Part shown: piece by piece, positions 47,940-63,606 of the stretch | Position numbering within the stretch: the first letter of the stretch is position 1 | How the letters are laid out: each line of letters begins with the position of its first letter | From: Candidatus Cloacimonadales bacterium | Lineage (GTDB): Bacteria; Cloacimonadota; Cloacimonadia; Cloacimonadales; JAFGVF01 | Direction: 5' to 3' | DNA: 64,000 nt | Assembly: GCA_963663475.2 (NCBI GenBank) | Contig: CAXXJV010000002.1 | Span: 256,001-320,000, forward strand | The notes under the pieces: model-generated | The model's database searches: none | What the model was told of the DNA's origin: nothing | The model's input: the letters and a program-made list of their open reading frames with translations, nothing else | Made by a program: the position numbers and the translations under genes

Positions 47940-48100
47940 TTAGTCCTCCATATAGTAAATTTTACATCATAATAATAAGCAAAATCAAGTTTCTAACATG
48001 ATTATTTTTATGGCAAGTATTATTTTTAGATATTTGCAATCAAAATACAGACATGTTTTTTTTAGTATTTGATTAATTTTCTTAGAAAAGTGAAAAACTA

Positions 48101-48222
48101 TGCACTTTGAAATTAAATTGCAGTGAATGAGAAATTATTTTGCAGTTTAGTCAAAAGTACACTGTTGAGAAATTAAATTGCAGTTTAGTTCTAGGATTTA
48201 GAAATTAAATTGCAGTTTAGTT
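48101..48222 (+). repeat. Four direct repeats GAAATTAAATTGCAGT(TTAGT): putative transposase-binding left end
   Basis: Cores at 48109, 48131 (2 mismatches), 48169 and 48201, between the last host gene and the repressor. Confidence 0.8.
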
Positions 48223-48225
48223 TAT

Positions 48226-48681
48226 TCAAAAGTTATTTTTTTGTAGTTTAATAATCAAATCTTTACACTCTAAAAGTTCTCTTAACCTGGTAAATAATTC
48301 TTGATTAAGTTCTTGATTTTTGTTTGAAAGGATAGAGCATTCTTTTTCAGACTCTTCAATGCTTTTTTTTAAGTCATTACAGACCTTTTCCAGCTGATCA
48401 TAACGTCTTCTTAAGTTAATTAACTCACTATTATCTATCCTCTTCTCCTGGGGCTCTTTATTATCCGATAAAAACATCTCTCCCTTACCTGTTAATAACC
48501 AATCCAAAGACACTTTAAAATGTTCGGATATAAGAATAGCCGCCTTTGTTGAAGGCATATTTTTATTATTTTCAATGTCAGAAAGGTTACCTGGGCTAAT
48601 GCCAATAGACTTAGCTAACTTAGTTAAAGATAAACTATTACGCCTCCTTAAATCTTTAATACGAGAACCTATATTTTCCAT
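48226..48681 (-). CDS. Prophage repressor (XRE HTH with coiled-coil C-terminus)
   Basis: IGSRIKDLRRRNSLSLTKLAKSIGISPGNLSDIENN...VSLDWLLTGKGEM; ATG 48681 with AAGGA RBS. Confidence 0.88.
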   Translation of the reverse strand: MENIGSRIKDLRRRNSLSLTKLAKSIGISPGNLSDIENNKNMPSTKAAILISEHFKVSLDWLLTGKGEMFLSDNKEPQEKRIDNSELINLRRRYDQLEKVCNDLKKSIEESEKECSILSNKNQELNQELFTRLRELLECKDLIIKLQKNNF

Positions 48682-48692
48682 TTTTGTTCCTT

Positions 48693-48771
48693 TTTCCGAA
48701 TATTTATCTTGACACATTCTTATTTCCGAATAATCTTGGTTTTAGAATAAAACAAAAAAGGAATCTGTCAA
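48693..48771. promoter_or_regulatory. Lysis/lysogeny switch: overlapping divergent promoters and operator repeats
   Basis: Rightward TTGACA(48709)-16-TAATCT; leftward TTGACA(48771)-16-TATTCT; TTTCCGAATA at 48693 and 48723, TTTAGAATA at 48741. Confidence 0.65.
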
Positions 48772-48965
48772 TGAAAAAAACAGAAAAGAGAAAAGTAGCA
48801 GAAGTGTTAAGAGCTTACAGAGCCATTAACAGGCTTTCCCAGGGAGAGTTTGGAAAACTATGTGACTTAACCCAGATGACAGTTTCTTTAATAGAGAATG
48901 AAAGATTCGAAAGGGTATCACTAGACACAATAAAGAAGGTAGAGGATTATGTGGCTCACCACTAA
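48771..48965 (+). CDS. Cro/Ner-like XRE HTH protein
   Basis: LRAYRAINRLSQGEFGKLCDLTQMTVSLIENE; divergent from the repressor. Confidence 0.85.
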   Translation: MKKTEKRKVAEVLRAYRAINRLSQGEFGKLCDLTQMTVSLIENERFERVSLDTIKKVEDYVAHH

Positions 48966-50994
48966 AGAAGCTGCTAAAAAATTAGGTATATCAACAAAAA
49001 CTATTAGAAGACGGATTTCTAATGGCGAATTGAAGACTAAATATGAAACAATCTATAAAAATGGAAGTGGAATAAAGACTCAATTTATATATGTCTTTTT
49101 TGATGAAAATAATCAGATGGACACTTCAAAAAAATCAGATGGACATCAGATGGACACTTCAAAAAAATCAGATGGACATCAGATGGACACTTCAAAAAAA
49201 TCAGATGGACATCAGATGGACACTTCAAAAAAATCAGATGGACATCAGATGGACACTTCTATCACCCCCCAAATCCAACCCTTAACCCTTCCTCCAATTT
49301 TATCAGATTATGGTCCTGATTTTTTCATTAAGCGGACATCTGGTTCCATGCGGGACAAGTTAATCGAGACATATTTAAATTTAAGTCGAGATGAGAAGAG
49401 TCAAGTTTTGGGATATGTCAGGCAGTTCATGAGTGAGCGAACCTGGTATAGTTGGGTAAGCCGATATAGGAATAGGGGTCATTTAAAGAGAAAGGTAAGA
49501 GCAGATAGGGGTAAAAGCCGTAAAGAGCTTCCTACTTTTATGCAGGAGTTATTGCAGGCAATTCTTATTTCTCATCCTCAATGGAATGTTCAGAAGGCTT
49601 ACGAGGATATGAAGCTATTGGCAGTCAATGGGGACTTAGTAGATTATTATACTGGTGAAGTATATGAAGATGTAAGTGAGTATTTGGTCCGTGAATGGAT
49701 AAAGACTTCGATCGTTCGTGATAGATGGTATTTCAGGTGGTATCCTAAGAGCAGGCGAAATCTTTATACCAGTATGAGTCATGCTCGAGGAATAAACCCA
49801 CCTAACACGGTATGGATGATAGATGATCATGACCAGGATGTATTAGTATGGAGTAAAGACAAGGATGGAAATGACAGGCAAATCAGGCCAAAGGTAATTC
49901 GTTCCTTGGATCCAGAGACTAATATGATAATGGGCTGGTGCATGACAGATGACACATATGGTTCTATTGAGATAAAGACAGCTATCATAGATGGAATAAT
50001 CAAGCATAGATGTATTCCTAAGCAGATATATTTAGAATGTGATAAAAGAATGCGGGAAAGCGGATTGATTGAAGGTTTAGAGAAGTTAGGAATAGAAGTA
50101 ATAGGAACTCCTTACAATCCGACAGCTAAGGTTAATGTAGAGCGAAGTTTTGGCAATGACAGGATGGAGCTTGATAGCAAGTATGATTCTTATATTAACC
50201 ACAACACAGTTGAGCGTCCAGATGATGCAGACAGAAGAGTTTTCACCAATTACGAGGAGTATTTCCAGGATTATGCAGATTATGTAGAGCATTGGAATAC
50301 CCAGCGACCAAGTATCTTCAGGGGCAAGATAAAAATGACTCCTGTAGATATGTGGAATGCCTGGATAAAGAGAGGTTGGAAACCTGAAATGTTACCAATG
50401 AATGTAATTGACCATATTCCTTACTGGTTTGGCAAGAAAGAAGTAAGGGTAGTTCAGGGTGGTAGAGTAAGATTTACTATAGATGGTGAGCAGTTCTACT
50501 ATTTAGGAGAGTGCTTAATGCAACTTCCTAATGGAACCCCTGTAGATATAAGAAGAAAGTTTAATGATCCTCGAGAGGGTTATGTATATATAGGTAATGA
50601 GAATTTAGGCAAGATATTCTTACAAGAGAAAGTAGGTTATGGATTCTTAGAGTTCTCACAACCGGAAGCTGTGAAAATGGTACAAGGATTTAATCTCATG
50701 AGAACCAAGTTATTGAAGGTTAATGATGAAGATTATCCATTTATCAAATCTTATCTTAATAGAATTGAGGAACTTAGCAAGTCACAAATCAAAGACGCAA
50801 CTATGTTAATCCCCAATAAGATCATTCGTTTCATCAACGAAAAGACAGGTTCAGCTTTAGAAGTATCTGAGAAGATGCGACAAGAAGAAGTATCAGTTCT
50901 TAAGGTTAAGAGTGGTTTAACTAGGAAGATGGATAGTAAGGTGAATGATTTGGATGATGAAATTAGTGCCTTATTGGGAGGAAGTGGAGAGTGA
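48949..50994 (+). CDS. Mu-type DDE transposase/integrase
   Basis: N-terminal HTH (WLTTKEAAKKLGIS), RADRGKSR, WMIDDHDQD, PKQIYLECD, YNPTAKVNVERSFG, WN...TP..MW, C-terminal beta-barrel. Confidence 0.88.
   Translation: MWLTTKEAAKKLGISTKTIRRRISNGELKTKYETIYKNGSGIKTQFIYVFFDENNQMDTSKKSDGHQMDTSKKSDGHQMDTSKKSDGHQMDTSKKSDGHQMDTSITPQIQPLTLPPILSDYGPDFFIKRTSGSMRDKLIETYLNLSRDEKSQVLGYVRQFMSERTWYSWVSRYRNRGHLKRKVRADRGKSRKELPTFMQELLQAILISHPQWNVQKAYEDMKLLAVNGDLVDYYTGEVYEDVSEYLVREWIKTSIVRDRWYFRWYPKSRRNLYTSMSHARGINPPNTVWMIDDHDQDVLVWSKDKDGNDRQIRPKVIRSLDPETNMIMGWCMTDDTYGSIEIKTAIIDGIIKHRCIPKQIYLECDKRMRESGLIEGLEKLGIEVIGTPYNPTAKVNVERSFGNDRMELDSKYDSYINHNTVERPDDADRRVFTNYEEYFQDYADYVEHWNTQRPSIFRGKIKMTPVDMWNAWIKRGWKPEMLPMNVIDHIPYWFGKKEVRVVQGGRVRFTIDGEQFYYLGECLMQLPNGTPVDIRRKFNDPREGYVYIGNENLGKIFLQEKVGYGFLEFSQPEAVKMVQGFNLMRTKLLKVNDEDYPFIKSYLNRIEELSKSQIKDATMLIPNKIIRFINEKTGSALEVSEKMRQEEVSVLKVKSGLTRKMDSKVNDLDDEISALLGGSGE
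49112..49259 (+). repeat. Perfect 33-bp tandem repeat x4.5 inside the transposase
   Basis: ATCAGATGGACACTTCAAAAAAATCAGATGGAC encodes QMDTSKKSDGH; contains 9 copies of ATCAGATGGAC. Confidence 0.97.
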
Positions 50995-51054
50995 TTTTGA
51001 ATTGAGAATAAAGGGATATTTGAACAGAGAATAGAGTGATTAAGAGTGAGAAAT

Positions 51055-51167
51055 GTAGGGGCGAAACATCTTTCGCCCAATTAAGAAACCACCCCGTCTT
51101 GGAAATACCAAGACACCCCTCCACAGAGGGGAATTAAGAATGCCGGCAAGATGCCAGCGTTCCCAGT
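51055..51167 (+). repeat. Cluster of three different REP-like hairpins
   Basis: GTAGGGGCGAAACATCTTTCGCCC; ACCACCCC...CACCCCTCCACAGAGGGGAATT (also 57654-57692); GAATGCCGGCAAGATGCCAGCGTTCCCAG (also 52721-52751). Confidence 0.75.
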
Positions 51168-51185
51168 AAAATAAGGAGTAAGAGA

Positions 51186-51458
51186 ATGGAATTAGAAGTA
51201 ATATTAAAAGAATGGGAAGATGAAGTAAGTGATTTATACAAGTTACTTCAGCAGGATGAGGAAGAGAAGAAGAAGATCAATCTCAAAATGAAAGAGAGTG
51301 AACTAGGTCAACAACGATTGGAGTTAACCAGGAGAATTAAAAAGATAAAAGGCTTAATTGAGCAAAGACGCTTTGAGATATCCGGGTTAAAGAAAGCTGA
51401 ACAAAGGCTTAAAGGCAAGGTAAAGGCAAAGAGGCGATTAACCATAGGAGAAAATTAA
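51186..51458 (+). CDS. Phage coiled-coil hypothetical protein
   Basis: AAGGAG RBS; charged helical 90 aa. Confidence 0.7.
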   Translation: MELEVILKEWEDEVSDLYKLLQQDEEEKKKINLKMKESELGQQRLELTRRIKKIKGLIEQRRFEISGLKKAEQRLKGKVKAKRRLTIGEN

Positions 51459-51462
51459 GGCA

Positions 51463-51648
51463 ATGCTATGCAGGTACTGTAATGGGAAGTTAAAGGTAAT
51501 TAAGACCGAGTGTAATGATAGTGGAGTAATGCGAATAAGACGCTGTAATGATTGCGGAATGGTAATCACTACCTTTGAGAAAAACAGTCAGGAGAAAAGA
51601 GCCAATGGAAAGAAAAGCAGCAATAAGGCTGATTTGGCACAAAAGTAA
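51463..51648 (+). CDS. Zinc-ribbon protein, Ogr/Delta- or NrdR-N-like
   Basis: CRYC-x21-CNDC followed by TTFE. Confidence 0.65.
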   Translation: MLCRYCNGKLKVIKTECNDSGVMRIRRCNDCGMVITTFEKNSQEKRANGKKSSNKADLAQK

Positions 51649-52006
51649 AGACATGGGATGGACACCTGAAGAGCTTCATCAGCAGATAGGTAGTCTAAAC
51701 ATGGTTCGATTTGATAGGATAAGCTGTTGTTCAGGACGGGAGTTATCTCTAATCCTGAACCAGCTTTTTCAGGTTCAAGCATTTGTGGCAGACAGTAAAT
51801 CGGTAAGATATTTGAAGTATCTGTGTAAAGATAATGATAATAAGGAGACCTTGAAAGGTATTCTTAAGCGTTGGAAAAAGCAAAGTGTATATCAAATGAA
51901 TAACAAGCAATTAGCGTTTGCTATATCGTTTTTAAAGGGAGATGAGACTGGAGTTAGGAGTGAGGAGTTGAAGAGGCTCACCACAGAGAACACAGAGAAG
52001 AATTGA
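51605..52006 (+). CDS. GemA/gp16-like (DUF1018-like) protein
   Basis: IRLIW...MGW...L...S......EL..IL..L pattern; AGGAG RBS; Mu-like early context. Confidence 0.5.
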   Translation: MERKAAIRLIWHKSKDMGWTPEELHQQIGSLNMVRFDRISCCSGRELSLILNQLFQVQAFVADSKSVRYLKYLCKDNDNKETLKGILKRWKKQSVYQMNNKQLAFAISFLKGDETGVRSEELKRLTTENTEKN

Positions 52007-52080
52007 GAATTGAGAGTTGAGAGTTGAGAATTTCCTCACACGAAGACACGAAGACACGAAGAAAAAAAAGGAGTAAAATT

Positions 52081-52305
52081 ATGACTATATTTTTATTATT
52101 CACCACGATGGTATTAGCAATAATGCTTACTTTATCATTTTTCGGTTCAACAGGCCGAATATCAGAATTAGAAGAGAAGAACTTTCTTTTAAAGAGTGAG
52201 AACTATCAATTAAAGCAGAAGTTTAACCAATCACAAGACAAGCTAAAGCTTATAAAAGTTCAAGCTAAGAAATTGAGAAATATTCAGAAGTATAGGGGGT
52301 GCTAA
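52081..52305 (+). CDS. Small membrane-anchored coiled-coil protein
   Basis: AAGGAG RBS, N-terminal hydrophobic helix, then heptads. Confidence 0.65.
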   Translation: MTIFLLFTTMVLAIMLTLSFFGSTGRISELEEKNFLLKSENYQLKQKFNQSQDKLKLIKVQAKKLRNIQKYRGC

Positions 52306-52536
52306 ATGGCTGCTTTGCATAAAGCCTTAGTACAGAATGACGGTATATACTGTAATGGCACCTGGTATTATCATAAGGATATCTTAGTGAAAATGGGCCA
52401 AGAGTGCCTGGTGGAGAAAACAGGATTAGGAGAAAGAGCTAATATTTATGATTTAGAAGGTGAGAGATGGGATGGCCAAGCCCAAGCCGTGGTAACGGTG
52501 AGTGTTAAGCCTTTGAAGAGAGGAGTTAGGAAATGA
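52306..52536 (+). CDS. Stand-alone Mu-transposase C-terminal-like domain
   Basis: VQNDGIYCNGTWYY...MGQECLV...IYDLEG matches the V..GI..G..Y...G..V...VYD..G pattern. Confidence 0.5.
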   Translation: MAALHKALVQNDGIYCNGTWYYHKDILVKMGQECLVEKTGLGERANIYDLEGERWDGQAQAVVTVSVKPLKRGVRK

Positions 52537-52769
52537 AGTGCTTCACACGAAGGCACGAAGGCACGAAGAAGAAAAACCCCTTAACACAGAGTTTCACAGA
52601 GGTTAAGAGGAGTTTCACAGAGGTTTGAGAGTGGAAAGGATATGAAAAGCGTACTGGAATACGCATTTATACAATTTTAGATATTAACAAATAAGTCAAG
52701 AAGAAATTAAGAATTAAAGAGAATGCGGGCAGGGATGCCCACGTTCCCAGTTAATTAAAGGAGAAAAAG

Positions 52770-53411
52770 ATGTTTAAGTTTTTAGAAGCACGAAAAGAGG
52801 GAAACAAGACTATCTTAAGCGTTCCCAGATGTTTATATGAAGATTTTAGAAATGAAATAATGTTATTAATACATGGTAGTTTACTTATCGTTAATGATCA
52901 TAAGGATTTCCAAAAACAGGTAGAAAAACTGGAAAGTTTTTTGAGTGGTTCGGATCTACATATTTCTCGAGATACTCTTTCGGTATATCTTGCTTACAGT
53001 AATTGTACGGAAATATATTTGACCACACACGGAGTAAAAAGGGGCTGTAAAATGAATGAAAAGGCCACAGCAGAAGCCATGAAAGATGTATTTCGTGCTT
53101 CTGATATTCTAGAAGTTCTTGAGCATTTTTCTGAAAGCTTTGATCAAAGTCTCTTACCCGGGTCAGAGGGTCAGAGAAAGTGTAATGAAAGCACCAGATT
53201 GTGTAAAGAACCAGCTGAGCAAAGCGAGAAGAGGAAGTCTTTGCTTGAATTTCTGCGACGTGATCTGGATGAAGCGATGAAAGCTTTAATACAAACCGGA
53301 CAGTATGCTTATATTTGGCAAGAGAATCTAATAGAGCTGTTTCGCCCGACACTAAACATAATTGATAAAGATGTTCCACCTGCTTCTCAGATAGAAGTGA
53401 AGATAGTTTAG
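52770..53411 (+). CDS. Hypothetical protein overlapped by an antisense ORF
   Basis: 213 aa, AAGGAG RBS. Confidence 0.5.
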   Translation: MFKFLEARKEGNKTILSVPRCLYEDFRNEIMLLIHGSLLIVNDHKDFQKQVEKLESFLSGSDLHISRDTLSVYLAYSNCTEIYLTTHGVKRGCKMNEKATAEAMKDVFRASDILEVLEHFSESFDQSLLPGSEGQRKCNESTRLCKEPAEQSEKRKSLLEFLRRDLDEAMKALIQTGQYAYIWQENLIELFRPTLNIIDKDVPPASQIEVKIV

Positions 53412-53457
53412 TAATAGCTTCAGCAACCCGCATTAGGTTGAGTTCATGTTGTTTCAT
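52891..53457 (-). CDS. Antisense hypothetical protein with its own promoter and RBS
   Basis: AGGAGG (53468-53463) 5 nt before ATG; TTGACT at 53513-53508; 188 codons open. Confidence 0.55.
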   Translation of the reverse strand: MKQHELNLMRVAEAITKLSSLLSEKQVEHLYQLCLVSGETALLDSLAKYKHTVRFVLKLSSLHPDHVAEIQAKTSSSRFAQLVLYTIWCFHYTFSDPLTRVRDFDQSFQKNAQELLEYQKHEIHLSWLLLWPFHSFYSPFLLRVWSNIFPYNYCKQDIPKEYLEKYVDPNHSKNFPVFLPVFGNPYDH

Positions 53458-53530
53458 GGGTTCCTCCTAAAGGTAAATTTACAAATAAATACAAGTATTA
53501 ACAAATAAGTCAAGGAAAAAGGAGAAAAAG

Positions 53531-53803
53531 ATGAAACCTAGAGTGATAATCCATTTAGAGTGTGATAGTGTATTAAGAGAACCTAAAGTAGTTAAAGCCT
53601 TGGAAGATTTAGGAATCGAAATAACAGGGACAGCTTATAATCCAACAAGTAAAGTTGATGTGACGATACAGAAAGAATTAACCCTTGAAATGGCTCACAA
53701 GAAGATTGAGAGCATGTTCGAGGGGCTCCCACCCTCTAAAGTAGCCAATATACTAAGTTATATTGCTGATGAGCTAAGAGCTGATACGAGGTTTAAACTA
53801 TGA
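53531..53803 (+). CDS. Small protein homologous to part of the transposase catalytic core
   Basis: IHLECDSVLRE...LEDLGIEITGTAYNPTSKVDV versus transposase IYLECDKRMRE...LEKLGIEVIGTPYNPTAKVNV. Confidence 0.75.
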   Translation: MKPRVIIHLECDSVLREPKVVKALEDLGIEITGTAYNPTSKVDVTIQKELTLEMAHKKIESMFEGLPPSKVANILSYIADELRADTRFKL

Positions 53804-54093
53804 AATACTATGAAATAATAGACCCTAAAGTAAAAGAAATGACTATACAAGGCATATTAGGGTCTTGTAACAAGTTAAATTTTACCGAAGAGATGCTTGA
53901 AATAGTCAAGAATATATCAGTCAGCCTGGTTCCAAAAGATAAAGGTACTTTATTAATTACAGCCTGCTTTCCTTCCAGACGGGTATTAGTAAAATCAGAT
54001 ACTCTACCAGTTAAAAATGCTGATGATCAAATTGAAATAAGCAAAGAAGAGTATGATGCTTTGGTGGAAGCAAATCATCTGGAGGAAGAGTGA
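53800..54093 (+). CDS. Phage hypothetical protein
   Basis: ATGA overlap with the upstream ORF; GAGG RBS. Confidence 0.6.
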   Translation: MKYYEIIDPKVKEMTIQGILGSCNKLNFTEEMLEIVKNISVSLVPKDKGTLLITACFPSRRVLVKSDTLPVKNADDQIEISKEEYDALVEANHLEEE

Positions 54094-54305
54094 AGGAACA
54101 AAGAAAATATGTATGGAAAATCAAGTATAAAAGCGGTAATGGAGACTATATAGAAGTAAGTGTTATTGCATCAGGTTTTGAAGCATTAGCAAAGTGGTTG
54201 TACCGGAGAATATGGGTAAACAATGTAATAACCATTTCCTTAGATAAAGAAATATTGGAGCTTGTTGATGAAGACTCTGATATACTACAATTAGATAACA
54301 ATTAA
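54090..54305 (+). CDS. Phage hypothetical protein
   Basis: GGAGG RBS and GTGA overlap. Confidence 0.6.
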   Translation: MKEQRKYVWKIKYKSGNGDYIEVSVIASGFEALAKWLYRRIWVNNVITISLDKEILELVDEDSDILQLDNN

Positions 54306-54331
54306 CCACCCCGCCTATACAGGCATCAAAG

Positions 54332-54370
54332 AGTTGTCGGAAGTCGCTACTTCGTAAGCAAGACCCGTCA
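54332..54370 (+). repeat. 39-bp repeat (second copy at 57424-57462)
   Basis: AGTTGTCGGAAGTCGCTACTTCGT(A/G)AGCAAGACC(C/T)GTCA, 2 mismatches, internal hairpin. Confidence 0.85.
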
Positions 54371-54382
54371 AAGGAGACAAGT

Positions 54383-55093
54383 ATGAATAACGAACAATTT
54401 ATGGAGTTAAGTCCTGAAGAAAGATTTGAAGCAATCAGGAAGCTCTTAGGAAAGATGGAACTTAGTATGGTAGAGACAGGTAATCTGCTCTCTGAGATTA
54501 AGAGAATGCGAACATACAAAATAAAGGGTTATAAGAGCTTTAGAGAGTTTACTGAAGCTGAGTATAACCTACCCGGTAGAGTGGCCAATTCTTTAACTAA
54601 GATGTATGACTTCTTTATTAGAGAGATGAACCTGGATGAAGATACTATCAATAAGGTTGGTTTTGATAAGTTGGAGTTAATCCACCCAATAGTAAAAGAT
54701 ACAAGTTATGAAGTTCAGGAGGAGTGGGTAAAAACAGCTGAAGACCTTACATATCCTGAGTTAAATGAGAAAGTAAAAGAGATAAAAGTAAAAGCCCGGG
54801 AAGAAGCAAAGACCTTAAAAGATGTCTTAGTAGAACAATACTTTGAGAACATGCTGGGATACTTCAACTGCTCAAAGAGAGAATTAAATTACAAGTTAGC
54901 TCTTTATTTCCAGGATATGGATTTGGAAGAAGTTAATGAAGTGATCAGGAAGCAACAAAGGAAGTTTGAGGAAGAAATAGAAGGGTCTCACACGAAGGTA
55001 CGAAGACACGAAGAAGATAAGGCCCTTAACACAGAGGATACTTTTCCTAAGGGGAGTTTCGTAGAGATTTTAAGAGAAAAGGATAAAAGATGA
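54383..55093 (+). CDS. DUF3102-like phage protein
   Basis: GNLLSEIK...Y...GYKSFREF.E.E......A..L pattern; AAGGAG RBS. Confidence 0.55.
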   Translation: MNNEQFMELSPEERFEAIRKLLGKMELSMVETGNLLSEIKRMRTYKIKGYKSFREFTEAEYNLPGRVANSLTKMYDFFIREMNLDEDTINKVGFDKLELIHPIVKDTSYEVQEEWVKTAEDLTYPELNEKVKEIKVKAREEAKTLKDVLVEQYFENMLGYFNCSKRELNYKLALYFQDMDLEEVNEVIRKQQRKFEEEIEGSHTKVRRHEEDKALNTEDTFPKGSFVEILREKDKR

Positions 55094-55149
55094 AAAAAGG
55101 AATCAAACACAGTGAAATTAGTGGATAGATTAAAAAAGGAGAAAGAATA

Positions 55150-55761
55150 ATGGCAAAAGAGATTAAAGAAGGAAAGAGTGTATATTGGGTCGATGGAGAA
55201 GGATATAAGGTTCCTGTAAAGTATATCAGTAAAGATGATCAGGCCCGTGATGAGTTAGTGTGTAAAGTTATAAGTGATGTTATTGCACTTCAGAAGCAGA
55301 TAGCAGAGTTTAGAGTAGATGTCTTCAGAGTAGTGGATAATCATTTAAACAAGGTTGCCCATCAACATGGTGAAGACTGGCGAGGCAATGCCTGGATTTA
55401 TGATTTTTCTAAGGAGAAAGCCATCGAGGTTAAGATCAATAAGAGATTAGCTTTTGATGAACGCCTCCAATTAGCCAAAACTAAGATAGATAACTATATC
55501 AAAGGACTTGTGAAACAATCAGGTAAAGAGATAGTTATGCTTATTAATAAGGCCTTTAATGTCGATAAAAGAGGCAATGTAGATGTTCAGCAGATTTTAG
55601 GATTGAGACAACTAAAAATCGAACATCCGGAATGGCAAGAAGCTATGGCCTTGATAGATGAAGCAACCCAGGTAGAATCTACCAAGAAATATCTTACCTT
55701 TAAGGTTAAGGATGATACTGGGGAATGGAATACTATCAGCTTGAACTTTTCAGCACTGTAA
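55150..55761 (+). CDS. DUF3164-like protein typical of Mu-like phages
   Basis: WVDGEGYKVP, FDERLQLAKTKID, AFNVDKRGNVD..ILGL, W.EAM, I.LNFSAL. Confidence 0.8.
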   Translation: MAKEIKEGKSVYWVDGEGYKVPVKYISKDDQARDELVCKVISDVIALQKQIAEFRVDVFRVVDNHLNKVAHQHGEDWRGNAWIYDFSKEKAIEVKINKRLAFDERLQLAKTKIDNYIKGLVKQSGKEIVMLINKAFNVDKRGNVDVQQILGLRQLKIEHPEWQEAMALIDEATQVESTKKYLTFKVKDDTGEWNTISLNFSAL

Positions 55762-55823
55762 GAGAAGACTTTTACACGAATTTAAACGAATTTAAACCAA
55801 TTAACACGAATTAGGAGAAGATA

Positions 55824-56138
55824 ATGAATGATAAAATAAAAACTATTGATGATGAAATAGATGAAATGATAGAAAATGCAAAAAGTGCAAGCCCGGTTAA
55901 TAAGGAGGACTTGCACTTGGTTTCTGATGAAGAGTTAAGTTCTCTTGAGATAAAGAACAGGAGAATCCGCAAAACTGTTGATGTAGCAACAGATAGAATT
56001 CTTAAAACCCTTCATGCTTTGTTAGATGATGGACGTCATCACGAGGCGTCCAAGCTCATCTTTCACATTGAAATACCTTGTGTTAAGCGAGGCGTTGGCA
56101 AGCCTGTGCTTAGCTATAAGGTAGAGAGAAACTGCTAA
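55824..56138 (+). CDS. Phage hypothetical protein
   Basis: AGGAG RBS; 3' 117 nt overlapped by the antisense ORF. Confidence 0.55.
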   Translation: MNDKIKTIDDEIDEMIENAKSASPVNKEDLHLVSDEELSSLEIKNRRIRKTVDVATDRILKTLHALLDDGRHHEASKLIFHIEIPCVKRGVGKPVLSYKVERNC

Positions 56139-56393
56139 ATCAATATCCTGAGAGGCAATTCGGTTAATCTTATTTGAACATTGTTCTGGGAGACACTCCT
56201 GGAAAATACGAGAGAGAACTTTGGTTCTTTCTATGAGCACTGTCTGTTCAATAGATTCATACTTTTTGCCTCTCGCTTTTTTTATGACTTCTTCAGGAAA
56301 GACATATTTCAAAAAATCTTTGGCGAGTTTTTTCTGATTAGTTTCGTAGTAATAGAAGTCAAAGTTACCTTTATAATGAAAGGTTTCGTGCAT
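56022..56393 (-). CDS. Antisense (moron-like) hypothetical protein with its own promoter and RBS
   Basis: AAAGGAGG before ATG 56393; TTGACA at 56451-56446. Confidence 0.65.
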   Translation of the reverse strand: MHETFHYKGNFDFYYYETNQKKLAKDFLKYVFPEEVIKKARGKKYESIEQTVLIERTKVLSRIFQECLPEQCSNKINRIASQDIDLAVSLYLIAKHRLANASLNTRYFNVKDELGRLVMTSII

Positions 56394-56469
56394 AATATCC
56401 TCCTTTGGAATTAATTATTTCAATAATCGAAGGATAAACTAAAAATGTCAAGTTTTTAAAGGAGAGAAG

Positions 56470-56682
56470 ATGTCTATAATGCTTTGGAAATATTATCTAC
56501 TGGGCTTATTTATTGTTTTAGGATATGGAAGATTATCAAAAAGTGTAATATGTTATCATTTTTTAATAATGCTTATGTTTCCTATATTAGTGGTAATCCA
56601 CTGCCTGAAGATAATAATTCTCTATATAAAAGCATATTGTCCAAAATATGAAATAAGATTTATCCCGGAGAAAAGAAAATGA
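56470..56682 (+). CDS. Small hydrophobic membrane protein
   Basis: AAGGAG RBS; two hydrophobic stretches. Confidence 0.55.
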   Translation: MSIMLWKYYLLGLFIVLGYGRLSKSVICYHFLIMLMFPILVVIHCLKIIILYIKAYCPKYEIRFIPEKRK

Positions 56683-57353
56683 CCAACAGAGAGTTATATA
56701 TCAAAGCTGTAGAGTTAGTAGGTAAGGAAGTAATGGAAGTCAAGCAGAGGCAGTTCTTACAGAGGATAATTAAGAAGAACCAAGCCCCTAAATCCCCTAA
56801 AGGGGACTTTGATAAGATGGGAATGAAGAATGAGATATACCAGGAAATAATCACTTATTTAAATAACCTGTCAGGTAAACAATTTCGTTGGAATACTCCA
56901 GAGACTAAAGCTTTAATCAGAGCCAGATTAAACGAAGGTTTTACAGTAAAAGAATTTAAACAGGTTATAGATATTAAGTGTAAGCAATGGCTGACAAATG
57001 AGTATTTTAAATTCTTAAGGCCGAAGACTCTTTTTGGTACTAAATTTGAGGGTTATCTGCAAGAATGGATAGTCTTTAAGAAGAAAGAAGAATATCAAAG
57101 GAAAGAGCTCGAGAAAGCTAGGAGGATTGAGAGAGGACTTCCTGATGAAACTATTACTCCGGAAGAGTTGAAAAAACAAGAAGAGTGGAGAAAGCAAAGT
57201 AAAGAGCTCTTAGCTAAAGCTAGTGAAGAGGATTATAAGACCTTTTATAAGCAATTAAAGCCACCTTTTAAAGACATGGCCTATAAAAGGGGATTGAAGG
57301 ATAATCTTGTGAAGTTGTATTATATTCAGTGGTTAAAAATGAATAAAGACTGA
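56679..57353 (+). CDS. Conserved phage C-terminal domain (Phg_2220_C-like) protein
   Basis: EIITYLN...G..F.....LIRARLNEGFT...FKQVID.K...W.....LRPKTLFG.KFEGYL. Confidence 0.8.
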   Translation: MTNRELYIKAVELVGKEVMEVKQRQFLQRIIKKNQAPKSPKGDFDKMGMKNEIYQEIITYLNNLSGKQFRWNTPETKALIRARLNEGFTVKEFKQVIDIKCKQWLTNEYFKFLRPKTLFGTKFEGYLQEWIVFKKKEEYQRKELEKARRIERGLPDETITPEELKKQEEWRKQSKELLAKASEEDYKTFYKQLKPPFKDMAYKRGLKDNLVKLYYIQWLKMNKD

Positions 57354-57539
57354 AGAGTTAGGAGTTAGGAGTTAGGAGTTTAAGAGGCTCACACGAAGGC
57401 ACGAAGACACGAAGAAGAAGACCAGTTGTCGGAAGTCGCTACTTCGTGAGCAAGACCTGTCATTAGAGTAATTAGTGTAATTAGCCTGGGTTGGCATAGC
57501 TTTAGCGACGCCACCTGGATAGATTAAAAGGAGTTGAAG

Positions 57540-59018
57540 ATGAGTAGGTTCGCCAAGATATTAGCAATTAGTAGAATAGCTAAAAAAACAGGTAATAATG
57601 GCCTTTCCAAAAAAGACCAGGAGAAGTTGTTTAATGCCCTGGTAAAAGATATTACCACCCCGCCCAGGGGCACCCCTCCACAGAGGGGAATTAAAAAGAG
57701 CAATCTTTCTAATTTTACCAAAGTGGCAGAAGAGATAATGGGAGATAATCCCCAAGTAACAAAGTCTTATACAAAATTAGTAGAGAAATGGATAGAGCCT
57801 TATTCAGCAGGGCAAAAGCAGCTAATATTCAGTCAATACCAATCCTTTAGTCAAACAGCTTGGTTTCGTTCTTTAACTAATGACTATGTGTCTAATCTGC
57901 AAGGAAGAGGAGTTACTAAGGTTCAAATCTTGGCTTATATGGATGACAGAACAACCGAGATATGCCAGGCCATGCACGGAAGAGTCTTTGATATATCTTC
58001 TTATAGCATTGACCCTGATTTTGTTACTTATGAGAAGATTGAGTCTATGGGTTATGGAAGTATGCCAACTAAAGATATGAAGGTAATGCTACCTCCTTAT
58101 CATTTTAATTGCAGGACTACTTTTGTTACTTATGAAGAGGCGACTAATGATTTCGATAAAATCAAACAGAAAATATATGATGTAGAAAGTTTAACAAGCA
58201 AAGATGTTAAAACGATTATGGAGCCTCTCAAGGGGGCTGAATGGCTTAATAAATCAAAAGAGAGCCAGCACTATCAGAAGCATGGGATTGACCAAGGCTT
58301 AAGCAGAGAGAAATACAAGCAACAAATTATTGACAGTTTACAAGACAATGATAATATGTACTTGGCAGTTAATAAAGGTAACAAAAACCTTACTTTAACA
58401 ACGGTTAAATATCATCATCTAAGTGATAAAGGTGTTAAAAAATACCTATTTACTATCTTCCTGGTTAAAGAAGGCAAGGTTGTTACCAGTCATCTTAAGC
58501 CAGAGAATGAAGTTTTGCCAAAGGTTAAAGATAAGGCAATAAAAGTTGTTAGTATTAATAATGGTAAGCAAAGAATAATAAAGGAAGCTATCATGAAAAA
58601 AGAAGATTATTGGAACAGGCATAACTCTTATGACAGCATTATAGCAGAGGTTGAGGATAACAAGAAGTGGGGTAATTATCCTCTCAACTGCCTTGTTACC
58701 TGGTACCAATATGTACCCAGTGAGTTAGAAGATGATGAAGACTGGCATTGGGAATTAGATAGATCTATTCCTGCCCGTTATGATATTCATATCCTGCTGA
58801 TGAATGACTATAACTTCACCCAGGAAGAAAGAAACTTAATAGAGAGAACTGATAAAAAACTCTTAGATAACATTGATTATTACTTTAAGAAGATTAAAGT
58901 TATAAGCCCAGATGAACTGGCAGAGTTTTTGATTTGGTTGCAGGAAGCGAGAGAAGCAGAGAAGAAAGAAGAGTCTCACACGAAGACACTAAGCCACGAA
59001 GAAAACACAAAAAAATAA
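57540..59018 (+). CDS. MuF/SPP1 gp7-like head morphogenesis protein with long C-terminal extension (putative toxin plus immunity-like segment)
   Basis: DDRTTEICQAMHG and PPYHFNCR; then HYQKHG...GKVVTSH; then an acidic ~140-aa segment starting at in-frame ATG 58593. Confidence 0.75.
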   Translation: MSRFAKILAISRIAKKTGNNGLSKKDQEKLFNALVKDITTPPRGTPPQRGIKKSNLSNFTKVAEEIMGDNPQVTKSYTKLVEKWIEPYSAGQKQLIFSQYQSFSQTAWFRSLTNDYVSNLQGRGVTKVQILAYMDDRTTEICQAMHGRVFDISSYSIDPDFVTYEKIESMGYGSMPTKDMKVMLPPYHFNCRTTFVTYEEATNDFDKIKQKIYDVESLTSKDVKTIMEPLKGAEWLNKSKESQHYQKHGIDQGLSREKYKQQIIDSLQDNDNMYLAVNKGNKNLTLTTVKYHHLSDKGVKKYLFTIFLVKEGKVVTSHLKPENEVLPKVKDKAIKVVSINNGKQRIIKEAIMKKEDYWNRHNSYDSIIAEVEDNKKWGNYPLNCLVTWYQYVPSELEDDEDWHWELDRSIPARYDIHILLMNDYNFTQEERNLIERTDKKLLDNIDYYFKKIKVISPDELAEFLIWLQEAREAEKKEESHTKTLSHEENTKK

Positions 59019-59028
59019 AGGAGTTATT

Positions 59029-59574
59029 ATGAGAAAGTTAGTATTTATAGTGTGTTTGGTATTGTCGTTAATCCAATTAAATGCCAAAAATGATGTTATA
59101 AGTCATACTGAGTTTGGCTGTACCTTGGGGCATTCAATAAACCAAAGAGGCTATACTGCTTCAGCATATCTGTTTAGCCGAAGTAAGTACAGTTCTAAAT
59201 TTTCTCCATTTATAAAAGTTCTAATCGACTACAAAGGCGAACCTAAAGGTGTACTTATAGAAGATGAACCTTTTAGTTGGTGGGTTGATACAGGTAGAGA
59301 ACTATATGAAAAACATATTATTTCTATTGGGAATGTTTATACTATAGACAGAAAATGCAGATATAAATTTGTTCCTTACTTAGGTTTTGGCTTTAAAGAA
59401 AATTTTATTCAGTGGGATTCATCCATTGGAGAGGTATTTTATTCTTCAAAATCTATTAATACTCTTGGTGAAGCTGGAGTAGATTTTCTGTTTGTGTATA
59501 AGCAATTACTTATTTCATTAGGTATTTCTGCTCAGGCAGGAGCTAATCTGGGGGTTGGATTTAGGTACTATTAA
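59029..59574 (+). CDS. Outer-membrane beta-barrel-like moron protein
   Basis: Signal peptide; alternating beta pattern (PYLGFGF, EAGVDF); C-terminal LGVGFRYY. Confidence 0.65.
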   Translation: MRKLVFIVCLVLSLIQLNAKNDVISHTEFGCTLGHSINQRGYTASAYLFSRSKYSSKFSPFIKVLIDYKGEPKGVLIEDEPFSWWVDTGRELYEKHIISIGNVYTIDRKCRYKFVPYLGFGFKENFIQWDSSIGEVFYSSKSINTLGEAGVDFLFVYKQLLISLGISAQAGANLGVGFRYY

Positions 59575-59709
59575 AAAATATCTTGACAGCGTGTAAAACA
59601 CTGCACCCCTCATGGCAGTGAAGATGATATTAACGCAGGAATGATAGCTATAGTTCTTCGTGAACTATCTGATGAGGTAACTAAAGATTTGTTTCAATCC
59701 TAAATAATC

Positions 59710-59742
59710 AAAGAGCAGGCATCAAAACCTGCTCTTTTTTTT
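59710..59742 (+). terminator. Terminator ending the rightward phage operon
   Basis: AAAGAGCAGG-loop-CCTGCTCTTT followed by a T tract. Confidence 0.85.
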
Positions 59743-59754
59743 GCTTAAAATTAT

Positions 59755-59790
59755 CTAAACTGCAATTTAATTTCTCAATCTTAGAACTAA
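59755..59790 (-). repeat. Inverted copy of the left-end repeat
   Basis: 34/36 identical to the reverse complement of 48185-48220. Confidence 0.9.
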
Positions 59791-59791
59791 A

Positions 59792-59813
59792 GGCGTATTC
59801 AATACGCCCCTAC
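59792..59813 (-). repeat. GTAG-type REP-like hairpin
   Basis: Minus strand reads GTAGGGGCGTATTGAATACGCC. Confidence 0.7.
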
Positions 59814-59830
59814 ATTCTCAATTCTCAATT

Positions 59831-60325
59831 CTAAATTCTCAATTCCTGAAGTGTCATTTTCACTGCCAATTCTAAGAAAGGGCTAGGTTTTCTTCCGTGT
59901 TTTTTCATATTGATAGCAATAGCCCAAGCAGTTTGGGTTATTTTTTTATCTATCAAGTCTTGTTTCTTGGGTCTTTTACTTCTTTTCATGCTTTGAGCTT
60001 TAGACCAGGCACTTTTTATCTCATTTTTTACTATTCCCTTCTTGCGAACCCATTCTTTAATCTTATCAACTGGGGGCATATGGGGCTTGATTCCTTCATG
60101 TAGGTACTTAGGATATTTGGTAGAACCTGAGAGTTTCCCACCTTCAGCAACATATACCAGAATATAGGTTTCAGTATCAGACACCACAGTTTTAGTCTGG
60201 ATAGAGTTCTTTAAATGCCCTGTAACGACCATTTTCTCACTTTCTACGATGTTTATTGCCCTTGCCCTTATCTTGTCAGCAATTAAACCTAATTCTTCTT
60301 TTAAATGCCTTTTTACGCTTTCCAT
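59831..60325 (-). CDS. HK97 gp10-like neck/tail-completion protein
   Basis: TGHLKNSI, YPKYLHEG..PHMPP, G.KPSPFL. Confidence 0.7.
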   Translation of the reverse strand: MESVKRHLKEELGLIADKIRARAINIVESEKMVVTGHLKNSIQTKTVVSDTETYILVYVAEGGKLSGSTKYPKYLHEGIKPHMPPVDKIKEWVRKKGIVKNEIKSAWSKAQSMKRSKRPKKQDLIDKKITQTAWAIAINMKKHGRKPSPFLELAVKMTLQELRI

Positions 60326-60510
60326 CAATTCTCCTTATTAATCTATCCACTAATTTCACTAATTACACTAATTAAGAAATACCCTTAACACAGAGTTTCA
60401 CAGAGGTTAAGAGGAGTTTCACAGAGTTTTTAAACTCTCAATTCTCAACTCTCAATTCTTCTCTGTGTTCTCTGTGTTCTCTGTGGTGAGTCTCTTCAAC
60501 TTCTCACTCA

Positions 60511-60873
60511 CTATATATCAATAAAAGGCAAAAATCCTTCTCGTTCATTTATGATGTCATAGATAATCAGATTAGCTTCTTTGAGATAAAAGTCTTGTCT
60601 TCTCATCACATCAGCATCAGAAATTAAATGTTGAGCAGATTCACCTGTCCCCACTTGTTTAAAGACTCCTTTATTGCCTGCTATATAAGATATACGAGGT
60701 ATCAGGTAATATGCAGTTAAATACTTAAGAGCCTTGGTTATAGCATTATCTCCTGTATCTTCTACACCCTTGCGGCCGATGTATTCATAAGCATCATTTA
60801 TAGCATTCTCAATCACATCGTTATTTACATCTGTAATGTTCATAAATGTTTTAATCTGGTCTGCAGTAATCAT
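60511..60873 (-). CDS. Putative head-tail adaptor protein
   Basis: ITADQIK.F...I..AI.DA...I...ALKYLTAYY helical pattern; context. Confidence 0.5.
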   Translation of the reverse strand: MITADQIKTFMNITDVNNDVIENAINDAYEYIGRKGVEDTGDNAITKALKYLTAYYLIPRISYIAGNKGVFKQVGTGESAQHLISDADVMRRQDFYLKEANLIIYDIINEREGFLPFIDI

Positions 60874-61250
60874 AAAAGCTCCTCAAAGTGTAAGGTTTCT
60901 GTAGTTAAATTAAAGAGGGTGGCCTTGTACTCACTTCCGTTTATAACAAGGGGTGGTGATGTTTCAAGAGAGACAAATAAGTCAGCATCAAACTGCTCAA
61001 TTTTACTGAGCAATTCTAAGACAATTTGAGTATGATTTACACTAGTTTCATCTGTTTTAGTTACTATGGTAAGACTTACGTCCACCTGGTATCGGTTGAG
61101 GTTTAGAGATTCATTTTTCTTTTTAAAGACCTTTTCCAAGGAATACAGAGCCTTTCTATGGTAAGAGGCAATATCAGTATTAATATCTACTAAAGAAAGG
61201 CCTGTGCCTGCAATTAGCTCTTCTATCACATTCCATAAGGGGTAAATCAT
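60870..61250 (-). CDS. Phage structural hypothetical protein (possible tail terminator)
   Basis: Translationally coupled to the portal and to the next gene. Confidence 0.45.
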   Translation of the reverse strand: MIYPLWNVIEELIAGTGLSLVDINTDIASYHRKALYSLEKVFKKKNESLNLNRYQVDVSLTIVTKTDETSVNHTQIVLELLSKIEQFDADLFVSLETSPPLVINGSEYKATLFNLTTETLHFEELL

Positions 61251-62305
61251 TAAGACCTCCTAAGCAAGCTGTCCACACTTGTATTTTCTTTGATATTATA
61301 GACTAGAGGGTTAATAGTGAAGTCTGGATTATTTCCAAAAATACCAGGATATTTCTTTGCCAGTCCTCCGAATTGCCCAGATAAGACTAATTGTTTTGGA
61401 TGGATGGTAGTCTGGAAGAAGATCTCCATTTGCCCTTCAGTTTCTCCTGAACCTCCCATAGCAGTAGTATTAACCATAGAGAGTAAGCGGGGTGGTACTG
61501 CATGACAAGCAATGATGTTAGTAATACATTGTTGCTCCAACTGTAAGAAAGAAGCATCTTCTCTTTGCTGTAAAGCAGTCCATTTTCCTGACATTCCTTC
61601 TTTGTAAGGTATAACTAAAAGTTTATGAGCTCTTTCTTCTCCCTGGAACTTTTGTCTGAAGAAAGATTGAACATTATATTGAGCATTGGGTGAAATAGCT
61701 CCTCCCATTATCTCATAAACATAGTCTGGGATAGCGTTATTATCAAAAAATCTCTCATTATAAGTCTTAATCCTTTTAATAATCCTAATATCAGGGAGTA
61801 TAGGAAGATAAGAAGGTGCACCATAAATTGTAGATAAAGGTGTAGCTTGTTTAAAATGAAATACTTCATCTTCTTTAAAATCAACACTTTCTCCGTTAAC
61901 TGTTTGCCTGTAACCTGTTTTAATTTTTCTCATAGTTTGAGCAGGCAAGTGAAAGATTTGTCTTTTGCTTCCTACTTTAGGTAACTCCCAGTAAGCATTT
62001 CCATACATTTCATAATCCTTAATTGTTTTTAATAATAAAGTAATTGCTGAATCTGTTGGCGTTACTTCTTCCAGGATGTCCATAATTCTCTTATCAAAGC
62101 CCTTGCCCAGGATATTGATTGCTTTCTTTTCAATACACTCAGCATGATAAGGATTGATTGTATAAGCATCAGTGAGTTCATCCATTTCAAAAGGATAGTT
62201 GAACTCGTCGTCTTTTAAATCTAAAGCCTTACTTTTAGATGCTTGAGTATCATCAGATTTACTGATAATTACAAATGGTTCGTAGTTTAATTCATTACTA
62301 TTCAT
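61250..62305 (-). CDS. Phage portal protein, PBSX/P2 gpQ-like
   Basis: YGNAYWE, EVFHFK...IYGAPSY, FFDNNAIP, IIACHAVPPRLL; about 350 aa. Confidence 0.88.
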   Translation of the reverse strand: MNSNELNYEPFVIISKSDDTQASKSKALDLKDDEFNYPFEMDELTDAYTINPYHAECIEKKAINILGKGFDKRIMDILEEVTPTDSAITLLLKTIKDYEMYGNAYWELPKVGSKRQIFHLPAQTMRKIKTGYRQTVNGESVDFKEDEVFHFKQATPLSTIYGAPSYLPILPDIRIIKRIKTYNERFFDNNAIPDYVYEIMGGAISPNAQYNVQSFFRQKFQGEERAHKLLVIPYKEGMSGKWTALQQREDASFLQLEQQCITNIIACHAVPPRLLSMVNTTAMGGSGETEGQMEIFFQTTIHPKQLVLSGQFGGLAKKYPGIFGNNPDFTINPLVYNIKENTSVDSLLRRS

Positions 62306-62337
62306 ATATTTCTCCTTTTATTCCCCTACATTCCTCA

Positions 62338-63606
62338 CTAAACAACCATCACTCCATCAATCACTCTTTCAGAATGTCTTAAATCATAAAGCATAGCTAA
62401 AGACCAAAATTTATCTCCATGATGTTCAGTGCTTTCTGCATTATAGGAGAAGATGTTAGTACGGTTAGCAGATCTCTTTATTGATAAAATATGATTAAGC
62501 AGTGAAGGATCATTTGGTATTAATAGTTTCTTGTCTTCGAAGCCTCTTTTTAATCTTTTGGCAAGCCTTTCTTTAACAGCAGGAGCAAAGCTATATCCCT
62601 CAATTACATTAGGATAAAGGTAAGATAAATCTTCCCAGAGATTATAACCTATACCACCTCTATCTATAGCAAATCCATCTGCATCAGATTGTCTTATCAA
62701 GTTTATAAAAAACTCTTTCTGATAGGCAAAAGTCTCTCTCTTTAAGTCCTTTATATAATTAACAACCATTAACTTATCATCATTAATAAAGGCTCCTGTG
62801 ATAGCAGTTTCATCTTTCTTTCTTCCAATATCAGCAGCATAAAACATTTTAGTGTCTTCAGGGGTTGGATGTTCGTTAACATAAAGACAGGGTTCTATCA
62901 GGTTGTAAGGAATATAAGAGTCTGTAGTATCTAATGGCAGGCATTCATAAGCTTGAGCAAATTCTTCAGGTGTAAAAAGACTTCTTAATTCATCAACATT
63001 AATATCAAGTCCTTCTTCTTTGGCTGTATGAATAGTGATTAAATGCTTAGAAAAAGCATCATTCTTATCCCATATTTCCCAAAACTTATCTATCCTACTC
63101 TTAGGAGTCGAGATTACTGTTACTCTTCCTTGAGCTGCTGTAATAGCAGGAATAATAGCTTTCCATACTTCCCTGTCCTGGATAATAAAAGCAAACTCAT
63201 CTAAATATACATCACCTGCAAAACCTCTAGCAGTCATCCAATTAGTCGCCAAAGCTTTAATACTTTTACCATTGGGCATTAAGATTTCATGTTCAGTATC
63301 ATTAAAAGCTTCTATTCCCATTGCTTTAAGATGACTTCTTACATGGTTCATCACAATAACAGCATTATCTTTAGAAGCTGAAACTATTAACTGGTCCTTG
63401 TTATTAATTAATGAACCAATAATCATCTCTAGGCCTGATAGAAAAGAAAATCCTATTTGTCTCGATTTATTAGCAATCCTATACCTGGATTTATCAGCTA
63501 AGAACTTCTTTTGATATATTCTTAAGTTCTTGATACAGTATTGCTGTATAGCAGTCCTGACAAAAGCAGGTACCTTATCTGTTGACCATATTTGCCCTTT
63601 TTTCAT
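62338..63606 (-). CDS. terL: Terminase large subunit (Mu gp28 / P2 gpP-like)
   Basis: NKSRQIGFS, ARGFAGDVYLDEFAF, ISTP, DIGRKKDET, IDRGGIG, HGDKFWSLA. Confidence 0.92.
   Translation of the reverse strand: MKKGQIWSTDKVPAFVRTAIQQYCIKNLRIYQKKFLADKSRYRIANKSRQIGFSFLSGLEMIIGSLINNKDQLIVSASKDNAVIVMNHVRSHLKAMGIEAFNDTEHEILMPNGKSIKALATNWMTARGFAGDVYLDEFAFIIQDREVWKAIIPAITAAQGRVTVISTPKSRIDKFWEIWDKNDAFSKHLITIHTAKEEGLDINVDELRSLFTPEEFAQAYECLPLDTTDSYIPYNLIEPCLYVNEHPTPEDTKMFYAADIGRKKDETAITGAFINDDKLMVVNYIKDLKRETFAYQKEFFINLIRQSDADGFAIDRGGIGYNLWEDLSYLYPNVIEGYSFAPAVKERLAKRLKRGFEDKKLLIPNDPSLLNHILSIKRSANRTNIFSYNAESTEHHGDKFWSLAMLYDLRHSERVIDGVMVV

Follow-up and report, generated by a model that had tools for sequence, protein, structure and literature searches.

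This locus raises the question of how a short gene whose N-terminal half is a recognisable piece of a transposase came to be present in a transposable prophage, and whether it is kept there as a protein that acts on transposition. The mini-gene, which begins with an ATG codon and codes for 90 aa, occupies positions 53531..53803 on the + strand of the window, i.e. the stretch of 64,000 nucleotides from a Candidatus Cloacimonadales bacterium that was analysed. In the initial annotation it was suggested to be under selection as a protein, for example as a dominant-negative regulator of transposition or as a decoy. On balance we lean towards a different explanation, namely that the mini-gene arose as a mosaic joint within the hypervariable cassettes of a Mu-like prophage and is translated.

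The prophage that hosts the mini-gene measures about 27 kb, and the genome contains at least three copies of it. In the window it is present from position 48099 on, corresponding to C2:304099-331003 in the genome. Its left end carries an array of four 16-nt sites (48109..48216, + strand), and five inverted counterparts of these are located at the other end, approximately 11 kb past the end of the window (window-equivalent positions 74835-74969; C2:330835-330969). Two collinear copies are found at C1:1362917-1391213 and C2:14149-1, where homology likewise ends at the position equivalent to 48099, and a partial copy is present at the start of C1 (C1:1-23265). Both inverted end-site arrays and copies with different flanks are thus present, as is characteristic of Mu-like transposable phages. 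The genes are arranged in the order HTH repressor, small HTH protein, DDE transposase, small early genes, DUF3164, a Phg_2220_C protein and a Mu-F-like protein, after which the terminase and portal are encoded on the minus strand, followed on the plus strand by a protease, a capsid-like protein, an endolysin and the tape measure. The resident transposase (48949..50994, + strand; 681 aa) matches the phrog_310 transposase family with an E-value of 3.6e-37 and the TnsB profile with one of 5.5e-5. A MuB-like AAA+ target-capture ATPase beside it was sought by Pfam and PHROGs scans among 25 ORFs and none was found; the same gap is seen in the prophage of G003 (a genome of the same genus) and in the IMG/VR relative L019, as judged by ORF order alone.

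An AAGGAG ribosome-binding site (53519..53524, + strand) is located 6 nt 5' of the ATG of the mini-gene, whose TGA overlaps the ATG of the next gene (53800..54093, + strand; 97 aa) as ATGA. Codon usage, scored by frame after training on 362 long ORFs of this genome, gives a posterior of 1.0 for the mini-gene in its frame, and values of 0.995 and 0.987 for its two halves. The start context, GGAGAAAAAGATG, is also found 5' of ORF 52770, the upstream cassette gene (52770..53411, + strand; 213 aa), for which the + frame has a codon-usage posterior of 1.0. A minus-strand ORF of 188 aa at 52891..53457 was considered as a gene and rejected, as it is a shadow of ORF 52770 and scores as the reverse of a coding frame; for this reason we also rejected the idea that the mini-gene heads an operon read from a divergent promoter opposite this ORF. 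The shadow ORF has a strong GGAGG site. Contigs of run X18, whose nature as RNA is a guess, cover 53174-53377 and a few short pieces, none of them in the mini-gene, and they are uninformative on its expression. A scan of 48000-60500 against Rfam revealed no RNA family.

The likeness of the front part to the resident transposase is limited in extent and well defined. In a BLASTP comparison, residues 7-44 of the mini-protein (53549-53662, + strand) align without gaps to transposase residues 360-397 (50026-50139, + strand), with 22 of 38 residues identical and 30 of 38 positive (E 1e-13), which reproduces an earlier count made by hand. Scaled to an all-against-all comparison of the window, this E-value becomes, by our arithmetic, roughly 1e-8. 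In a self-BLASTP of the 259 stop-to-stop frames of at least 35 aa in the phage, this was the sole likeness between two real genes, and the other 9 rows were nucleotide repeats read in non-coding frames. The alignment opens at a conserved LECD motif and closes at V44/V397, so that Thr45 of the mini-protein faces transposase residue E398, a position conserved without exception in the family (10 of 10 members) and aligned to the Glu of the TnsB motif VERPF. The segment had previously been described as starting with the second acidic motif and stopping just short of the catalytic Glu, and these limits are borne out. In the profile alignment the Asp of the TnsB motif TDGG stands opposite E363 and not D365, so that either of these may be the catalytic residue; the mini-protein keeps the equivalents of both.

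In an AF2 model of the transposase (mean pLDDT 69.6), the matching segment comprises E359-361, H366-369, H373-379, E383-385 and the start of H391-400, and in terms of the RNase H-like core the fragment corresponds to its strands 4 and 5 with a helix between them and not to a DNA-binding part. The model of the mini-protein, built from an alignment of 5 rows, has a mean pLDDT of 60.8. Its fragment part is predicted as E5-8, H18-26 and E29-32 with pLDDT of only 43-62, whereas the remainder is predicted with pLDDT of 71-83 to form two helices, H52-62 and H68-89. The helical character that had been ascribed to this tail is therefore consistent with the prediction. Searches with the low-confidence model of the mini-protein against the PDB by Foldseek retrieved nothing at E<=0.001.

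The few protein relatives that were detected indicate that the two halves have different histories. Only four other proteins match the mini-protein among 5.8 billion protein clusters. A HMMER search of 1.84 billion representatives gave 3 matches at E<=0.001 and added nothing real; one of these, P0008 (488 aa, E 3e-4), was considered as a transposase and rejected as a spurious match, since it is a repeat protein with GIEITG units. P0002 (90 aa, 87% identical) represents the same gene, and all 12 of its differences fall within residues 52-88, so that 0 of 48 residues differ in the front versus 12 of 42 in the tail (Fisher p 4e-5). In P0003 (94 aa) the front is identical to that of the mini-protein at 41 of 44 positions and the tail is at best approximately 27% alike. 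Conversely, P0004 and P0005 (112 aa) have in common with the mini-protein only its residues 49-90 (93% identity; residues 71-112 in P0004), which in them follow an unrelated front of 70 residues; P0003 and P0004 could not be aligned with each other. The front is thus common to P0002, P0003 and the transposases, and the tail (53675..53803, + strand) to P0004 and P0005, each segment having its own nearest relatives. P0005 is encoded on the same NCBI contig (17,332 nt) as the transposase P0011, whose core is 88% identical, and this suggests that a close phage relative carries the 112-aa form. Scans of the mini-protein and of P0002-P0005 against Pfam and PHROGs yielded nothing credible and no transposase family, and in the ESM Atlas no usable match was found for the mini-protein and only unnamed clusters, all below 0.9, for P0004.

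The borders of the fragment could be placed to the nucleotide by means of metagenome contigs that were aligned on 52300-55100 with a likeness limit of 80%. Apart from 36 differences, a contig of 3184 nt from run X7 agrees with the window over 52757-53535; 53536-53674 is then replaced by 705 other letters, and the contig rejoins the window at 53675-54093 with 32 differences. The transposase-like piece, i.e. codons 2-48 (53536..53674, + strand; 139 nt), is exactly what is replaced, the breakpoints being 53535/53536 and 53674/53675. Since this contig has the start region, the tail and, behind the tail, the next gene, but not the fragment, the ribosome-binding site with its ATGAA and the ATGA coupling predate the fragment. 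The mini-gene had earlier been credited with a ribosome-binding site of its own and with translational coupling to its neighbour; both are present, although they are inherited from the neighbouring sequence. Among the 40 variant rows listed (of 171), none falls inside the mini-gene.

The same contigs, together with the relatives, indicate that the entire neighbourhood is variable. A direct repeat of 19 nt (53496..53514, + strand) has its second copy at 52682-52700, two exact copies in the window as against 0.13 expected by chance, and a contig of run X5 joins 52681 to 53496 and so is without the 814 nt between these repeats, including the ORF 52770 cassette. The mini-gene is preserved in this contig, which differs from the window at 5 positions over 53496-53885. 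At other repeats, further X5 and X7 contigs pass directly from 52573 to 54332 and so skip 1758 nt. In G003 there is a single gene of 106 aa between the homologs of ORF 52024 and DUF3164, where the window has about six, and in L019 nothing is found at the site of the mini-gene. As side observations in this zone, an element of 37 nt made of CACGAAG-type heptads occurs in five copies at the 3' ends of early genes (52027-52063, 52534-52570, 54979-55015, 57380-57416 and 58967-59003). Contig joints coincide with these heptad repeats, which have no Rfam family, and the word depth of run X7 is 590 at 52582-52675, adjoining one of the copies, versus approximately 16 elsewhere. It is possible that they are cassette-boundary or regulatory repeats.

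The mini-gene is accessory and rare. Of 232 genomes of the class, 2 gave a match, including that of the window itself, and the other, G003, has only a transposase. Three more distant phage relatives are without the mini-gene, and tblastn of the mini-protein on L017, L019 and L020 produced matches only inside their transposase genes. The phage family itself is rare, with 9 transposase relatives among 191 candidates. A search for orthologs, which had been suggested as a check, accordingly returns a divided answer: a few exist (P0002, P0003 and the X5 form), but not in the more distant relatives. Within its own genome, the mini-protein is encoded with 100% identity at 4 places, with no nucleotide difference among the four copies, which indicates that it is carried without harm and is uninformative on function. 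Further searches, for a donor transposase or for more orthologs, gave no true relative. Longer proteins provided 215 candidates, none at E<=0.01; stretches from genome contigs (594 in a first scan), from viral contigs (374 and 125) and from metagenome contigs (596) included none that was related, and phage records gave none, either by tblastn or by blastn of 8 kb. In a second scan of genome contigs, 1 of 160 stretches passed. This match, L018:6001-6042, is identical at 13 of 14 positions over mini-protein residues 18-31, and we judged it to be a chance helix-strand motif and rejected it as a relative. It forms the C-terminus of a 274-aa protein from a Muribaculaceae MAG, which from its translation reads as a DeoR-type regulator. 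As no closer donor transposase was present in any collection searched, a recent capture is not demonstrated.

The explanation that we favour, that of a translated mosaic joint, would account for these observations as follows. From a transposase gene that is a diverged relative of the resident one, a piece of 139 nt would have landed in frame between two pre-existing parts. The left part would be the start region of one early gene (ribosome-binding site plus ATGAA), and the right part the final 42 codons of a second early gene, one whose translation was coupled to that of the gene after it; about 705 nt take the place of the piece in a relative. The data directly establish that the mini-gene is chimeric and accessory, where its breakpoints lie and that its signals are inherited; the direction of the event is our inference. 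The resulting ORF is probably translated into a protein of about 10 kDa, in which a poorly ordered strand-helix-strand front, torn from the RNase H-like core, would precede a helical-hairpin tail, and any activity would most likely reside in the tail. The frame would stay open mainly because the fusion does no harm and because translation of the next gene requires ribosomes to arrive at the ATGA overlap, and the persistence of the gene would not depend upon the fragment acting on the transposase.

Published work describes phage mosaicism arising through illegitimate or homeologous recombination (PMC2327257, PMC3945230) and, for Pseudomonas Mu-like phages, short variable ORFs limited to specific accessory regions (PMC4378225). 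The mini-gene resembles the joints of mosaic phages in several respects: its segments have different nearest relatives and meet at sharp breakpoints, alternative sequence or none is present at the same site in relatives (X7, X5, G003, L019), and short repeats flank the cassettes of a variable block that lies between conserved early genes. It differs from the usual joints in that the insert is not a foreign accessory gene but an internal slice, in its native frame, of the phage's own key enzyme family, and in that this slice recurs with two different tails. The latter is also an argument against the mosaic joint, for three protein variants, with tails of two very different kinds, all keep the fragment open from an identical start, which exceeds what a one-off scar requires. 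Additionally, the front is far better kept than the tail, and this uneven conservation could reflect constraint on the front instead of recombination; we read it as mosaicism because recombination is directly shown at the border between the fragment and the P0004-type tail. The lack of a closer donor transposase in the collections searched also counts against this explanation, as does the identity at third codon positions, which is only 20 of 38, such that an old capture would require selection on the mini-protein. Lastly, the 705 letters in X7 could hold a version of the fragment that lies below the 80% likeness limit. If our preferred explanation is right, the locus provides a clean and well-delimited case of phage cassette shuffling creating a new small ORF, with both breakpoints mapped, both expression signals inherited, and a filler that comes from the phage's own enzyme family.

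A rather unlikely alternative, though the strongest of those considered, is that the function lies in the tail. According to this proposal the helical hairpin is a portable module that can follow various fronts, the transposase piece being just one of these and acting as a spacer or stabiliser unconnected with transposition. The occurrence of this tail at 93% identity behind the unrelated 70-residue front of P0004, P0005 and their cluster mates is in accordance with this proposal, as are its standing as the confidently predicted part of the model and the fact that in the X7 contig it travels together with the coupled next gene. Against it, the tail is far more variable than the front in P0002 and all but replaced in P0003, and no family, fold or Atlas match assigns a function to it.

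It is less probable still, and in our estimation quite unlikely, that the fragment is itself selected as a protein, either as a dominant-negative mimic of the transposase core that poisons transpososome assembly or as a decoy for a host or rival-phage factor. In the latter form it would soak up a factor that recognises the surface of the transposase, e.g. in competition among the related prophages of this genome. Among the observations in favour of selection is the pattern of divergence. The fragment and the resident gene are identical at 75 of 114 nucleotides (66%), and by codon position 1, 2 and 3 the identity is 24, 31 and 20 of 38. When 39 random changes were made in 114 nt, at least 22 of 38 residues were kept in only 2 of 10,000 trials, and 10% were free of stops. 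Residue conservation is thus far above that of random decay, and the divergence between the fragment and the resident gene arose under constraint at the protein level. The initial annotation was in this respect correct that the fragment is not random debris of the resident gene, but likeness to a transposase does not show selection on the mini-protein, as it may have been a donor transposase that was under this constraint, at a time before the piece was captured. The same applies to the dN/dS comparison with the transposase, which had been proposed as a check: by the NG86 method dN is 0.31 and dS 1.7, indicative of protein-level constraint, but a piece captured recently from a transposase that had diverged and still worked has an identical signature. 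This case serves as a warning that dN/dS against a paralog cannot prove selection on a captured fragment.

Further observations in favour of a mimic or decoy are that the front is identical in P0002 and nearly so (41 of 44) in P0003 despite their different tails, and that the gene is unchanged at all four places while the transposases of the phage copies differ by approximately 10%. Other properties of the fragment are less easily accommodated. The piece that is recognisable, which covers strands 4 to 5 of the core, has no more than about 38 residues and is predicted to be disordered alone; the core as a whole (strands 1-5, helices 1 and 4) is not present. The sole significant alignment is that with residues 360-397, and the HTH parts of the transposase (HTH_17, residues 2-31; HTH_32, 165-217) are unlike anything in the mini-protein. 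The acidic triad (Asp, Asp/Glu, Glu) is incomplete, the region of the first Asp (about 292-297, with an invariant DDHDQD) being missing and E398 replaced by Thr45. An alignment of the 10-member transposase family has 17 invariant positions within residues 360-398, of which the mini-protein keeps 11 and loses 6 (Y361H, K366S, R367V, M368L, G372K and E398T), three of the lost residues adjoining the acidic motif. P0003 retains the Tyr and a near-invariant Asn, both of which are altered in the window form, and some of the changes hence postdate the capture. The invariant residues lost and those that P0003 still keeps together point to a relaxation of transposase constraint after capture. Both expression signals are inherited, and the gene is missing from three more distant phage relatives and is rare in all databases searched. 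A prediction of the complex between the mini-protein and transposase residues 250-600, made without controls, had a score of 0.01 and provides no evidence either way. Nothing that was found links the mini-gene to the control of transposition, and the role as regulator or decoy that had been proposed for it is not supported here, although it keeps a low probability.

A precedent that speaks for a mimic is that inhibitory truncated transposases are known elsewhere, viz. Tn5 Inh, the KP/66-kDa repressor of the P element, and IS1 InsA and the OrfA proteins of the IS3 family, and these are made from the transposase gene itself and retain a DNA-binding or multimerisation domain. The mini-protein is similar to them in being shorter than the transposase, in having sequence in common with it and in being encoded by the same element. 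In contrast to them, it keeps only the equivalents of residues 360-397 of the catalytic core and has no DNA-binding or multimerisation part, and it is encoded at a separate locus, as an ORF 2.5 kb downstream of the transposase gene, with only 66% DNA identity and a fusion to an unrelated tail. The repressor c of phage Mu and the N-terminal domain of MuA share a DNA-binding domain that is complete and folded and acts on the same operator/enhancer. Mu repressor c provides a precedent among transposable phages for a regulator with a transposase domain; the mini-protein, unlike it, has a slice of the catalytic fold that is smaller than a domain and is not predicted to fold independently. The source family of the fragment is that of the DDE transposases of the MuA/TnsB type, with TnsB as the nearest solved relative (8rdu, 7svw, 8aa5). 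In common with these enzymes, the fragment has an LECD acidic motif and a YNPT-K loop; missing from it are the region of the first Asp, strands 1-3, helix 1, the catalytic Glu and every other domain. Should the mimic or decoy nonetheless prove to be real, a slice of a catalytic core acting in this manner would represent a new form of control in transposable phages.

A related proposal, which we hold to be marginally less probable again, is that a slice of the core of 45 residues is a selected and portable N-terminal module. It would recombine among related phages onto different helical tails, and would, as a micro-protein, either disturb the transposase of relatives that are co-resident or superinfect, or hide the transposase from a sensor of the host. 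If it were true, a new means of controlling transposition or immunity would have arisen from a fragment of a catalytic core and not from a DNA-binding domain. The weakest proposal, that the fragment is neutral debris from a decaying duplicate of the resident transposase gene, is very improbable: although its best matches are indeed in the resident transposase family, a decayed copy is rejected because random change so rarely keeps 22 of 38 residues, and the excess of identity at second over third codon positions, the in-frame codon usage and an alignment free of gaps and stops are all contrary to it.

A number of minor observations pertain to the prophage as a whole. Both assembly contigs begin inside a prophage copy. 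The transposase genes of two prophage copies are only about 90% identical, and in one copy the transposase region is 90% identical and the remainder 97-100%, which suggests the presence of several related phages as lysogens, or else a recent transposition together with recombination. At C1:1364720-1366173, in a prophage copy outside the window, the transposase gene is split after residue ~318 by an insert of approximately 1.45 kb that codes for ORFs of 140 aa and 261 aa, of the IS3 OrfA/OrfB kind by reading of the sequence. The N-terminal linker of the transposase (49079-49276) contains four to five tandem repeats of 33 nt, equivalent to repeated units of 11 residues, with AF2 pLDDT of 22-37, and a C1 copy has a different repeat unit there. 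A lone inverted 16-nt site of the end type is located inside the phage (59749-59791; site at 59759), where the direction of the genes flips, and the terminase, portal and neck genes lie on the minus strand (59831-63606) between plus-strand blocks; the inner site and the flip may be what a transposition or inversion within the element left behind. Lastly, a MuB-like ATPase was not detected beside the transposase in the window (51186-52536) or in L017 and L019, and the conserved early genes there code instead for a coiled-coil protein of 90 aa, a zinc-ribbon protein of 61 aa and a protein of ~140 aa without a family.
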